Origin: Candidatus Thorarchaeota archaeon
GTDB taxonomy: Archaea > Asgardarchaeota > Thorarchaeia > Thorarchaeales > Thorarchaeaceae
Assembly: GCA_008080745.1 (NCBI GenBank)
Contig: SHMX01000004.1
Span: 1-32,000, forward strand
Reading direction: 5' to 3'
Length of the DNA stretch: 32,000 nucleotides
Below the pieces are notes generated by a model. It had not been told where the DNA came from. It did no database searches and saw only the letters and a list, made by a program, of their open reading frames with translations. Below, in pieces: positions 6,132 through 8,303 of this stretch. Position numbers and translations under genes: made by a program. Within the stretch, counting starts at the first letter, position 1; each line of letters opens with the position of its first letter.

Positions 6132-8303
6132 TTGAGAAGTCGCTTCACATTTTTACTGATAATTGGATTGTTTGTATCCACAATTGGTCCAGCATTATTG
6201 TTTTGTCCTGTTTCTTCCCAAGATACTGTTGCTGTAAATGAGAGCATCTACGTTGATGTAGTAATTCTACCAAATGGTAGAATTAATGTAACTTATTTCA
6301 TGACGCATCGAGTTGACAGTGGATCTATAGGTGGATACGATTTACAAGGTATCCAAGAGAATTCAATTTATGACCCCGAGCGTAGTTATGTTGAGATGGA
6401 TGGAGAGAGATATAATCTTCAAGTCACACCTATAACGAATGGATATGGGTTAGATTGGACCCCTAGAACGCAGGCTGGAGAAACTGTTCTAGTTGTATTT
6501 GGTTATTTCAGTACTAATAGAATTGTTGAGAAAACTACTGGTACTTATACTCTAGAGGGATCTGGTGATACTATTACTGGGGATATGGGAGTATTCAATT
6601 GGGCACCAGTTCAATGGGAGTGGGATGTAGGAGTTTACAATGTCCGAGTAATTTATCCCATTGAGATGAATTCTACATGGATTGACGCAGAAGGAGGAAT
6701 TAATTCTGAAGGTGCTGACTATGCAGGGTATGTGGTTGATTATCGTCAAGGTATTTGGCAGGGGACAGATACGCAATTTGACTATGATGATGATAATCTA
6801 CTAGCTTATCCATCAGACCCTTCAGCAAGCCCTCGTAATTTCAGTGTCAGCCTTACTGCAGAACCAGCTCTTGCTTATGATCATCTACGTATATTTCACT
6901 ATACCAATTGGAGCTTCTATGCTGACCACCTTCTTCCCGGTTCAATAGGATATGCTACAGAAGAAAATCTGAATGTAGTTGCAAATACCGAATTTGAAAT
7001 TGAGCTCGATGTTTTCAATATTGGTGACACTGAACTGACAGGAGTGAATGTAGACATCACTGTTCCTGAAAATATAACACTACTTTCAGCTTCGTCATCT
7101 GGGTATCAAGCCACTCTTGATGGTGGTGAGAGTTTTCATATCTCTTACACCTTAGAACCTGATAATATGCCTGCGGTTCTAAAGGTAACATTCACTATTT
7201 CAGCAACTAACCTAAACCAATCTAGCTGGAAAACATTCACTGTAAATGTCTATATTCAGGAATACATTCCTCCCCTAATAGAGGCTACAATGCTAATCCA
7301 GTTGATTCTATTCGGAATTGGTGGTATTGCGGTTCTTGGTGTATCTGTTTATGGTTACAGATACATAACAGGTGGTTATGGTGCCAAATGGGAAGTTGAT
7401 GAAACCACAACCTACGAAAGTCCTACCATCTCGATACAGACCTTTGGTACGCCTGGGGAAGTGGCAAATCTTGATCCAGTTGAGTCTGCTTTCTTTGTGA
7501 ATACCCCTCGACAAAAATTAGTGGGAATGATCTTAATGTCCTGTGCGAGAAAAGGTGCACTTAGAGTCATATCAACTGATCCTCTGAAGGTTTCTAATAC
7601 AGGTGTTCGTTTTGAAGAGCTGACGTATTACGAAGATGCCTTGGTAAAGTGTATTGAGAACAATGAGCTAAAACCAGAATGTGTGGATATCGTACTGGAA
7701 GATTTGGCTGAGAAAGTACAGGAGAAATCATGGGATGCCGACTTTGAAGCGACCAAAGAGGCGCACGATGAACGGGTTGAAGGTGCTTGGGAAGAATTAG
7801 AATCAGAGCCCACCGCTAACGAGAGGACTGATTATTATTTCAATCGAAGATACCATGATCACGGTTGGGCCTGGTATTGGCTCTATATGCATCCCAATCA
7901 TGATAGTAGGATTGAGGATAACCTGACACCCTCCGGTGGTACCATTACACCACCACATATTCCTGAGTGGTTTACGGAGATGGCCGATGCTGCTGGCCAT
8001 TCTATCACCACTGCTGGTCGAGTTATTGGTGATGTTGCTGCAACGACCAGCCAAATAATTGGTAACGTAACCAACACTATTGGCGAGATTGTTAGCGGAG
8101 TGGGCAGGATAATTACAGAACCTCTCAAACCAATTGTTGAAGGAACCAGCCGGTGTGTTTCTCACGACGCCTGTCACAGTGCTTGCGTAAGTCACGATGC
8201 CTGTCATTCAGCTTGTCATAGTGCCTGTCATAGCGCCTGTGTATGTCATTCAGCTTGTCATAGTGCCTGCCATAGCGCCTGTGTATCCGGAGGATATCGA
8301 TAA
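6132..8303 (+). CDS. Predicted type I membrane protein (signal peptide, DUF2207-like and CARDB/Ig-like ectodomain, one TM, cytoplasmic domain) with C-terminal Cys/His-repeat RiPP-like tail, 723 aa
   Basis: TTG start with GAGGAG RBS. Hydrophobic N-terminus RFTFLLIIGLFVSTIGPALLF. Seven N-x-S/T sequons before the TM. Ig-like FEIELDVFNIGDTELTGVNVDITVP. TM at ~aa 387-409 (nt 7290-7358). Ends CVSHDACHSACVSHDACHSACHSACHSACVCHSACHSACHSACVSGGYR. Confidence 0.9.
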   Translation: MRSRFTFLLIIGLFVSTIGPALLFCPVSSQDTVAVNESIYVDVVILPNGRINVTYFMTHRVDSGSIGGYDLQGIQENSIYDPERSYVEMDGERYNLQVTPITNGYGLDWTPRTQAGETVLVVFGYFSTNRIVEKTTGTYTLEGSGDTITGDMGVFNWAPVQWEWDVGVYNVRVIYPIEMNSTWIDAEGGINSEGADYAGYVVDYRQGIWQGTDTQFDYDDDNLLAYPSDPSASPRNFSVSLTAEPALAYDHLRIFHYTNWSFYADHLLPGSIGYATEENLNVVANTEFEIELDVFNIGDTELTGVNVDITVPENITLLSASSSGYQATLDGGESFHISYTLEPDNMPAVLKVTFTISATNLNQSSWKTFTVNVYIQEYIPPLIEATMLIQLILFGIGGIAVLGVSVYGYRYITGGYGAKWEVDETTTYESPTISIQTFGTPGEVANLDPVESAFFVNTPRQKLVGMILMSCARKGALRVISTDPLKVSNTGVRFEELTYYEDALVKCIENNELKPECVDIVLEDLAEKVQEKSWDADFEATKEAHDERVEGAWEELESEPTANERTDYYFNRRYHDHGWAWYWLYMHPNHDSRIEDNLTPSGGTITPPHIPEWFTEMADAAGHSITTAGRVIGDVAATTSQIIGNVTNTIGEIVSGVGRIITEPLKPIVEGTSRCVSHDACHSACVSHDACHSACHSACHSACVCHSACHSACHSACVSGGYR
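8154..8300 (+). repeat. Coding tandem repeat: 2x CVSHDACHSA, then a 42-nt near-perfect duplication (8202-8243 / 8244-8285) encoding CHSACHSACHSACV
   Basis: Read directly. The 42-nt copies differ at one synonymous site (TGT/TGC). The two 30-nt CVSHDACHSA units differ only at synonymous positions. Confidence 0.95.

Follow-up and report, generated by a model that had tools for sequence, protein, structure and literature searches.

A 32,000-nucleotide stretch of a Candidatus Thorarchaeota genome (GenBank assembly GCA_008080745.1, contig SHMX01000004.1, positions 1 to 32,000; the whole stretch is called the window below) carries a gene for a large membrane protein that ends in a tandem repeat of cysteine and histidine and, divergently on the other strand, a gene for a radical S-adenosylmethionine (SAM) enzyme. 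The 49-residue tail is probably the substrate of this enzyme and crosslinked by it, a reading that was reached through the comparison of sequences and that involves three features of the window:

3822 to 5261, minus strand: the proposed tail maturase, a PqqD-radical SAM-SPASM enzyme of 479 aa recognized by its Pfam domains, with the PqqD part as RiPP recognition element (RRE; RiPP, a peptide that is synthesized ribosomally and modified after translation), divergent to the tail gene
6132 to 8303, plus strand: the tail-bearing membrane protein of 723 aa, comprising a signal peptide or anchor, a DUF2207-like N-domain predicted to lie outside, one transmembrane segment, a DUF2207_C-like domain predicted to be cytoplasmic, a helical linker and the tail
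8154 to 8300, plus strand: the Cys/His repeat tail of 49 aa, i.e., the last 49 codons of the 723-codon open reading frame (ORF) and the proposed site of modification

Codon 675 of the ORF begins at position 8154 and the stop codon occupies 8301 to 8303. The tail in between reads CVS-(HxAC)2-VS-(HxAC)4-VC-(HxAC)3-VSGGYR, where x is Ser in seven of the nine HxAC units and Asp in the other two, and 11 Cys together with 9 His account for 20 of the 49 residues. The original prediction, made from the DNA of the window alone, had counted seven CHSA units, two CVSHD motifs, nine H-x-A triplets (seven HSA and two HDA) and a GG before the terminal YR, and all of these counts are correct. Such a composition is exceptional in this organism. 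Over all ORFs of at least 200 aa in the 3.16-Mb genome, Cys makes up 0.98% and His 1.98% of the residues, no other segment of 49 residues has more than 12 Cys and His, and the binomial expectation for 20 or more is about 2e-12 over 715,702 segments, so that chance is no explanation for the tail; at the end of the other long ORFs of the genome no such tail was found. In an AlphaFold2 (AF2) model the predicted local distance difference test score (pLDDT) stays below 50 across the tail, which thus has no confident fold.

In 30 Thorarchaeota orthologs the tail is almost unchanged, with changes limited to occasional Ser/Thr, Ser/Ala and Tyr/Phe/Val exchanges, and the body of the protein is 52–81% identical. 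Per ortholog pair, the 49 tail codons have 28.2 synonymous versus 0.57 non-synonymous codon differences, and the 49 codons upstream of the tail 20.8 versus 16.0. The Ser codons of the tail alternate between the AGY and TCN families among the orthologs, and its synonymous sites are saturated. By these substitution counts the peptide appears to be under strong and long-standing selection. At the DNA level there is a periodicity of 12 nt and of 42 nt, and two 42-nt modules encoding (CHSA)3-CV (window 8202 to 8286) are identical at 41 of 42 nt here and at 38 of 42 in a relative of the same genus, the module identity between genes being 31.3 ± 3.1 nt. These features would fit a slippage-prone microsatellite, functionless and still expanding, but that explanation was rejected as extremely improbable: number and order of the units are the same in all 30 orthologs and the tail is therefore not expanding, the saturation of synonymous sites goes along with invariant residues and with the AGY/TCN switches of Ser, and the irregular spacers keep their positions in archaea and bacteria alike. 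The near identity of the two modules suggests a recent intragenic conversion despite the ancient peptide.

A pattern scan of one genome per GTDB species returned at least 599 stretches, among which at least 569 tail relatives were confirmed, in Thorarchaeota, metagenome-assembled genomes of Thermoproteota/Nitrososphaerota, Chloroflexota, Spirochaetota, Deltaproteobacteria/Myxococcales, Sumerlaeota, Armatimonadia and Thermoanaerobaculia, so that the bacterial carriers come from no fewer than six phyla. The only name that databases give to these relatives is “hypothetical protein”. The locus of the window itself was listed for no RNA run and for two marine-sediment DNA runs only, which are possibly the source of the assembly. 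That the tail might also occur as a stand-alone small precursor was considered and rejected, since the complete relatives are all about 500–1000 aa long; short database matches come mostly from short contigs, and several appear to be cut at the contig end.

The statistics of the repeat were drawn from 61 distinct tails of this wider family, and they define the true conserved unit as [H/Y]-x-A-C rather than C-H-S-A. His lies within H-x-A-C in 554 of 574 cases, Cys directly follows Ala in 607 of 647, and three positions before Cys there is His in 554 cases and Tyr in 25, an exchange seen notably in YDAC, the first unit of bacteria. At the x position, in about 600 units, Ser stands 423 times and Asp 140 times, with other residues being rare. 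Only x varies, and His, Ala and Cys are invariant, as would be expected if all three served ring formation or recognition. Val-containing spacers (V, VS, VC) are kept at fixed places between the runs of units from archaea to bacteria, and the layout ...-VC-(HSAC)3-VS-x-aromatic is common to bacteria and Asgard.

These counts also bear on the claim of the original prediction that the tail combines three known substrate grammars of radical SAM enzymes at once, which was overstated. The CX3C periodicity is real and kept family-wide, though a consequence of the tandem unit, and H-x-A is conserved throughout the family (554 units of H-x-A-C plus 25 of Y-x-A-C). CX3D and GG, on the other hand, are not family-wide: the former is limited to the two CVSHDA units of the Asgard lineage, as bacteria and Thermoproteota carry CVHDAC, i.e., CX2D, and most units have Ser in place of Asp, and the GG before the end is specific to Asgard, bacterial tails finishing in VS-x-F. 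A reading that had been missed is that [H/Y]-x-A-C would have, by analogy, the ring geometry of the NxxC β-thioether motif (PMC9389541).

The enzyme on the opposite strand is recognized by Pfam through PqqD (29.6 bits against a threshold of 23.4, residues 43–98), Radical_SAM (91.7 bits) and SPASM (22.9 bits against a threshold of 21.5). In 47 orthologs the CX3CX2C ligands C138, C142 and C145 are invariant, as are seven Cys of the SPASM domain (352, 366, 384, 421, 424, 430 and 434), and an eighth, Cys 368, is present in 72%; R36, D39 and N53 of the PqqD region are likewise invariant among the orthologs. With the CX3CX2C motif, the SPASM Cys for two clusters, the PqqD-like element and a candidate substrate next to it, the enzyme appears to have the superfamily marks of RRE-dependent radical SAM/SPASM peptide maturases. 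The nearest solved structures by profile are SkfB (1.8e-27), the lipid enzyme Tes, PqqE (6.8e-22) and CteB (2e-16), the last of which aligns along its whole length, RRE included. If the seven invariant Cys serve two auxiliary clusters, one coordination site would remain free. An auxiliary cluster of CteB offers a comparable free site, to which a Cys of the substrate binds, and the likeness would favor a Cys-dependent reaction in the present case. A prediction of the enzyme in complex with SAM, three 4Fe-4S clusters and residues 610–723 of the tail protein scored 0.00 and was counted neither way.

At the level of curated families the enzyme stays below the cut-off of every NCBIfam family: it scores 90.5 bits with the PapB model (cut-off 340), 52.1 bits at window 3948 to 4868 with the CrpC family TIGR04463 (rSAM_vs_C_rich; cut-off 525) and 32.7 bits with the CXXX-repeat maturase TIGR04115 (cut-off 350), and models of peptide-crosslinking SPASM maturases gave similar pictures on a relative (WgkB, 89.5 of 650 bits; DynA, 86 of 450 bits). 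The best scores come from the tetrapyrrole enzymes AhbD (147 bits) and NirJ2 (138 bits), each with a cut-off of 500. That its best-scoring curated families are radical SAM enzymes of the haem pathway, and that CHSACH in the tail is readable as CX3CH, raises the thought that the overlapping C-x3-C-H strings are variant attachment sites for haem c. This is very improbable, given that an overlap of the motif every four residues is sterically implausible, that the tail is predicted to be cytoplasmic whereas haem c is attached outside the membrane, and that the enzyme has a peptide-binding RRE and scores far below the cut-offs of AhbD and NirJ2.

The pairing of enzyme and tail is supported by gene linkage. 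In the family to which the window belongs, about 55 genomes have both genes and 15 have neither, some of the latter being 91–98% complete, and in all seven discordant genomes the position is at a contig end or N gap. The tail protein is present as a single copy in 58 of 76 sampled genomes of the family. The order enzyme, p131 (a small gene described below), tail gene is kept in 17 of 18 family loci, the exception being a scaffold gap of 100 N. There are three gene orders within Asgard: in a second family the stop of the tail ORF abuts the start of the enzyme, and in a third the enzyme gene overlaps the start of the gene for a 924-aa tail protein. Outside the Thorarchaeota, in Thermoproteota, Chloroflexota, Spirochaetota, Deltaproteobacteria/Myxococcales, Sumerlaeota, Armatimonadia and Thermoanaerobaculia, 49 of the 52 loci kept include an ortholog of the enzyme (38–51% identity, E 1e-77 to 1e-140). 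Most of the bacterial loci have it 2–300 nt downstream of the tail gene on the same strand, and the three Thermoproteota loci have it upstream, again on the same strand. The universal core thus consists of the tail protein and the enzyme, and the linkage is as strong as comparative genomics can give for an enzyme and its substrate. The suggestion that the tail is a radical SAM substrate is strongly supported by this synteny and co-occurrence in Thorarchaeota, two other Asgard families, Thermoproteota and several bacterial phyla, from which it follows that the tail is very likely the substrate of this particular enzyme.

The bacterial cassettes (loci L081 to L130) contain more than this core. 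In at least 38 of these loci two further genes follow the enzyme, the first encoding a coiled-coil protein of about 400 aa, in some cases with a zinc ribbon, and the second a protein of about 170 aa with two transmembrane segments and a zinc ribbon; neither has named relatives. Both were sought in the genome of the window with bacterial queries and not found, and profile comparison gave no relation between them and the small Thorarchaeota genes p131 and p111 (hhalign probability below 4%). A domain of the MNIO type (DUF692) is absent from the eight scanned proteins that cover window 3822 to 13644.

Several of these results weigh against the proposed modification. The two conserved accessory genes of bacteria were not found here, so the Thorarchaeota system may work differently. 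The enzyme is so far under the cut-offs of all curated thioether and cyclophane maturases that its chemistry cannot be transferred by homology, and its best scores, with AhbD and NirJ2, though common for SPASM proteins, give no pointer to peptides. The tail, its extreme conservation, the domains and cluster ligands of the enzyme and the linkage of the genes are observations; the binding of the substrate, the reaction, the type of bond and the role of metal are what we infer, for every member of the family. Finally, invariant Cys and His would be expected of a pure metal site too. The tail might then be an unmodified module that binds metal or Fe-S clusters, and the enzyme would be linked to it for some other reason, for example with the tail as scaffold or donor of clusters, as anchor or as regulator. 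In favor of such a module, which is on balance fairly unlikely, 20 of the 49 residues are classical metal ligands and all of them are invariant, AF2 yields no fold without a cofactor, TIGR04222/DUF2207 relatives bear other Cys- or Gly-rich tails, and the related MNIO-modified bufferins are copper chelators (PMC12452194). However, the RRE of the enzyme is a peptide-recognition domain, near-perfect linkage over very long evolutionary distances is typical of maturase–substrate pairs, and ligand chemistry alone leaves the invariant Ala and the His-to-Tyr exchange of some units unexplained. The tight link to the enzyme thus argues against an unmodified tail. Metal binding by the finished tail is compatible with its crosslinking, and would become the main rival explanation if no modification occurs.

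The protein that carries the tail could be placed in the DUF2207 superfamily by its architecture. By hydropathy the protein has a signal or anchor at its N-terminus and a single transmembrane helix at about residues 388–406, which would put its first 380 residues outside and its last 315 in the cytoplasm. The outside part has weak Pfam matches to DUF2207 and DUF11; the DUF2207 N-domain (PF09972) scores 16.5 bits in the window protein versus a gathering score of 24.4, a threshold that is passed by the bacterial homolog of locus L081 with 31.4 bits. Matches of relatives to DUF2207_C (PF20990) are sub-threshold, with 19.8–24.5 bits versus 33. An AF2 model of residues 421–723, built on 40 homologs, reached a pLDDT above 90 over some 160 residues (about 441–600), and a long helix precedes the tail. 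The modelled cytoplasmic domain (window 7392 to 8150, residues 421–673) matches predicted DUF2207_C clusters with template modelling (TM) scores of 0.52–0.54 and, more weakly, bacterial GPP34, and a Foldseek comparison with the PDB gave only weak rows for yeast Vps74 and human GOLPH3 (E 0.02, TM 0.32–0.36), which suggests, on the basis of the model, a possible common fold of DUF2207_C and GPP34.

The canonical DUF2207 protein, YciQ of E. coli, is similar in overall architecture and in the fold of the cytoplasmic domain, and it too has a C-terminal tail of low complexity whose last residue is aromatic, although in YciQ this tail ends in a Gly-rich run and a terminal Trp. In E. coli K-12 there is no radical SAM gene adjacent to yciQ in that region. 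A low-complexity tail with an aromatic residue at its end seems general to the superfamily. Across DUF2207 proteins this tail is variable, and the Cys/His repeat stands in its place. DUF2207 is a very common family for which, to our knowledge, no function is known. No curated family covers either the enzyme or the tail protein of the window, and a literature search on the motif, on Cys-His repeats and on DUF2207 together with radical SAM found no description of such a system in the library covered.

From these parts the following sequence of events can be proposed. The membrane protein would be inserted so that the N-domain comes to lie outside and the C-terminal half in the cytoplasm, where the enzyme would bind the cytoplasmic part through its RRE. 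Through 5′-deoxyadenosyl radicals it would then furnish each of the nine [His]-x-Ala-Cys units with one intramolecular crosslink, by which the floppy tail would be converted into a fixed and rigid ladder, and the residues left unmodified, either imidazoles or thiols, would be placed so as to bind metal. As the type of bond, a thioether formed by the Cys sulfur would be the most likely. By analogy with known enzymes, a candidate acceptor is the Cβ of the His or Tyr three residues upstream (a ring of the NxxC type), where a radical would be stabilized; another candidate is the neighboring Ala (a C-x-x-X ring of the CrpA type), a spacing that is broken by the irregular units. The main alternative would be a cyclophane between His C2 and Ala Cβ, as made by HaaB. 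It is possible, though we would not expect it, that the bond type or topology has not been described before, in the form of nine consecutive four-residue rings from Cys-S to His/Tyr Cβ, or of a His–Ala cyclophane ladder that leaves eleven thiolates aligned.

Around the enzyme and the tail gene, the window contains the following neighbors:

1 to 3630, minus strand: a secreted protein rich in Thr, Ser and Asn and more than 1210 aa long, which runs off the edge of the window and whose start is 190 nt downstream of the radical SAM gene
5382 to 5777, plus strand: p131, of 131 aa, found between the enzyme and the tail gene in Thorarchaeota loci with both
5793 to 6128, plus strand: p111, of 111 aa, found in a minority of the orthologous loci and without match in Pfam or NCBIfam
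8635 to 9396, plus strand: a calcineurin-like phosphoesterase (Pfam Metallophos, 60 bits)
9900 to 11117, plus strand: p405, of 405 aa, with a HEYEH (HEXXH) motif and without family match, a conserved neighbor in most Thorarchaeota loci

The p131 protein is 65–79% identical in 17 of the 18 family loci and has no match in Pfam or NCBIfam; it was not found in bacterial cassettes, and the rows returned by an atlas search all scored below 0.9. p111 is present in two of the 18 family loci, with six distinct orthologs in all. The phosphoesterase gene abuts the tail gene in most Thorarchaeota loci, and in many family loci it starts at the end of the tail gene or at most 4 nt from it, but it lies 330 nt downstream here, and it was not seen in bacterial cassettes; its link to the tail system is uncertain. 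An oligo-T run lies within this 330-nt gap, at window 8340 to 8352, about 40 nt past the stop of the tail gene. Chloroflexota cassettes have a HEXXH protein as well, an InhA-like one that follows the enzyme and is unrelated to p405.

Such HEXXH proteins nearby, together with an M29 peptidase close by, would be of interest if the tail were the core of a releasable peptide product, in which case the 670-residue membrane protein would act as a giant leader or export platform from which a protease frees the modified tail. The layout, with a helical segment ahead of the tail, does resemble that of leader and core. This reading is nevertheless improbable, because the cassettes share no conserved protease or exporter, the DUF2207 architecture that forms the protein body is conserved, well folded and single-copy, and the tail is predicted to lie in the cytoplasm.

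What is known of radical SAM/SPASM enzymes concerns mainly the making of small peptide natural products. That such an enzyme crosslinks a large archaeal protein was first proved in September 2026, for CrpC, an RRE-radical SAM-SPASM enzyme of Methanococcus voltae that installs ranthionine links in the large Cys-rich protein CrpA (PMC13692751); experiments demonstrated thioether rings of the C-x-x-X type. This pair is the closest experimental analogue of the enzyme and tail described here, as it shares the type of enzyme, the archaeal host and Cys-rich C-terminal repeats on a protein larger than a RiPP precursor. CrpA, however, is soluble and has 17-residue C-x-x-Q/D repeats without His, in contrast to the four-residue units at the end of a DUF2207 membrane protein, and the two cases also differ in enzyme family and in the fold of the substrate. 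Crosslinking of the tail would be a case of radical SAM/SPASM modification of a Cys-rich sequence that differs from CrpC/CrpA and is much more widespread.

In architecture, the closest analogue is found among TIGR04222 membrane proteins, whose Cys-bearing C-termini were proposed in 2025 as substrates of adjacent MNIO enzymes (PMC12452194). These are DUF2207-related multi-domain membrane proteins as well, with low-complexity C-termini and a RiPP-type enzyme next to them, and one tail relative (P0008) matches TIGR04222 weakly. The difference lies in the enzymes, which are MNIO iron enzymes there and radical SAM/SPASM here, and in the tails: those of TIGR04222 are rich in Ser and Gly with scattered Cys and predicted to be periplasmic, whereas that of the window repeats Cys and His exactly and is predicted to lie in the cytoplasm. 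Among curated concepts the CXXX-repeat system (target TIGR04117, maturase TIGR04115) comes closest, with a C-terminal Cys at every fourth residue and a radical SAM/SPASM enzyme beside it, but TIGR04117 models a protein of about 98 residues rather than a membrane protein of 700 aa. The tails of relatives score 11–17 bits with TIGR04117, against a cut-off of 50, and the window protein has no match at E ≤0.01. Some tail relatives carry a precomputed label of PF27846, the Pfam family that probably corresponds to the CXXX-repeat system.

For the chemistry of the bond, precedents come from enzymes acting on short motifs, and those invoked by the original prediction are genuine: HaaB joins His C2 to Ala Cβ on HAA (PMC11499958), and PapB joins Cys to Asp or Glu (PMC9413430). 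With NxxcB, Cys becomes linked to the residue that lies three positions upstream, and several acceptor residues are tolerated (PMC9389541); its substrate NxxcA has the acceptor at the spacing of H-x-A-C. PapB with PapA, CteB with SCIFF, and NxxcB are SPASM enzymes that form Cys thioethers in short repeated motifs, as is proposed for the enzyme considered here, but their substrates are short leader–core peptides, and the CX3D of the PapB type is not conserved in the window family. The triceptide synthases that act on His motifs, HaaB on H-A-A and HtkB on H-T-K (PMC11499958), are similar at the level of the motif, in that every unit follows the order aromatic-x-acceptor, His or Tyr taking the first place and Ala the third; the known triceptide cores do not have an invariant Cys after the motif.

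That the tail is kept nearly letter for letter in archaea and bacteria alike implies that its chemical structure is a precise one. Once solved, this structure could reveal a new crosslink, a new metal site borne by a protein, or the role of DUF2207, and the [H/Y]-x-A-C unit is short enough for direct study with synthetic peptides. If the linkage should prove to be an undescribed one, the tail would represent a membrane-tethered, protein-borne ladder with metal or redox activity, and would provide the first biochemical handle on the DUF2207 family.

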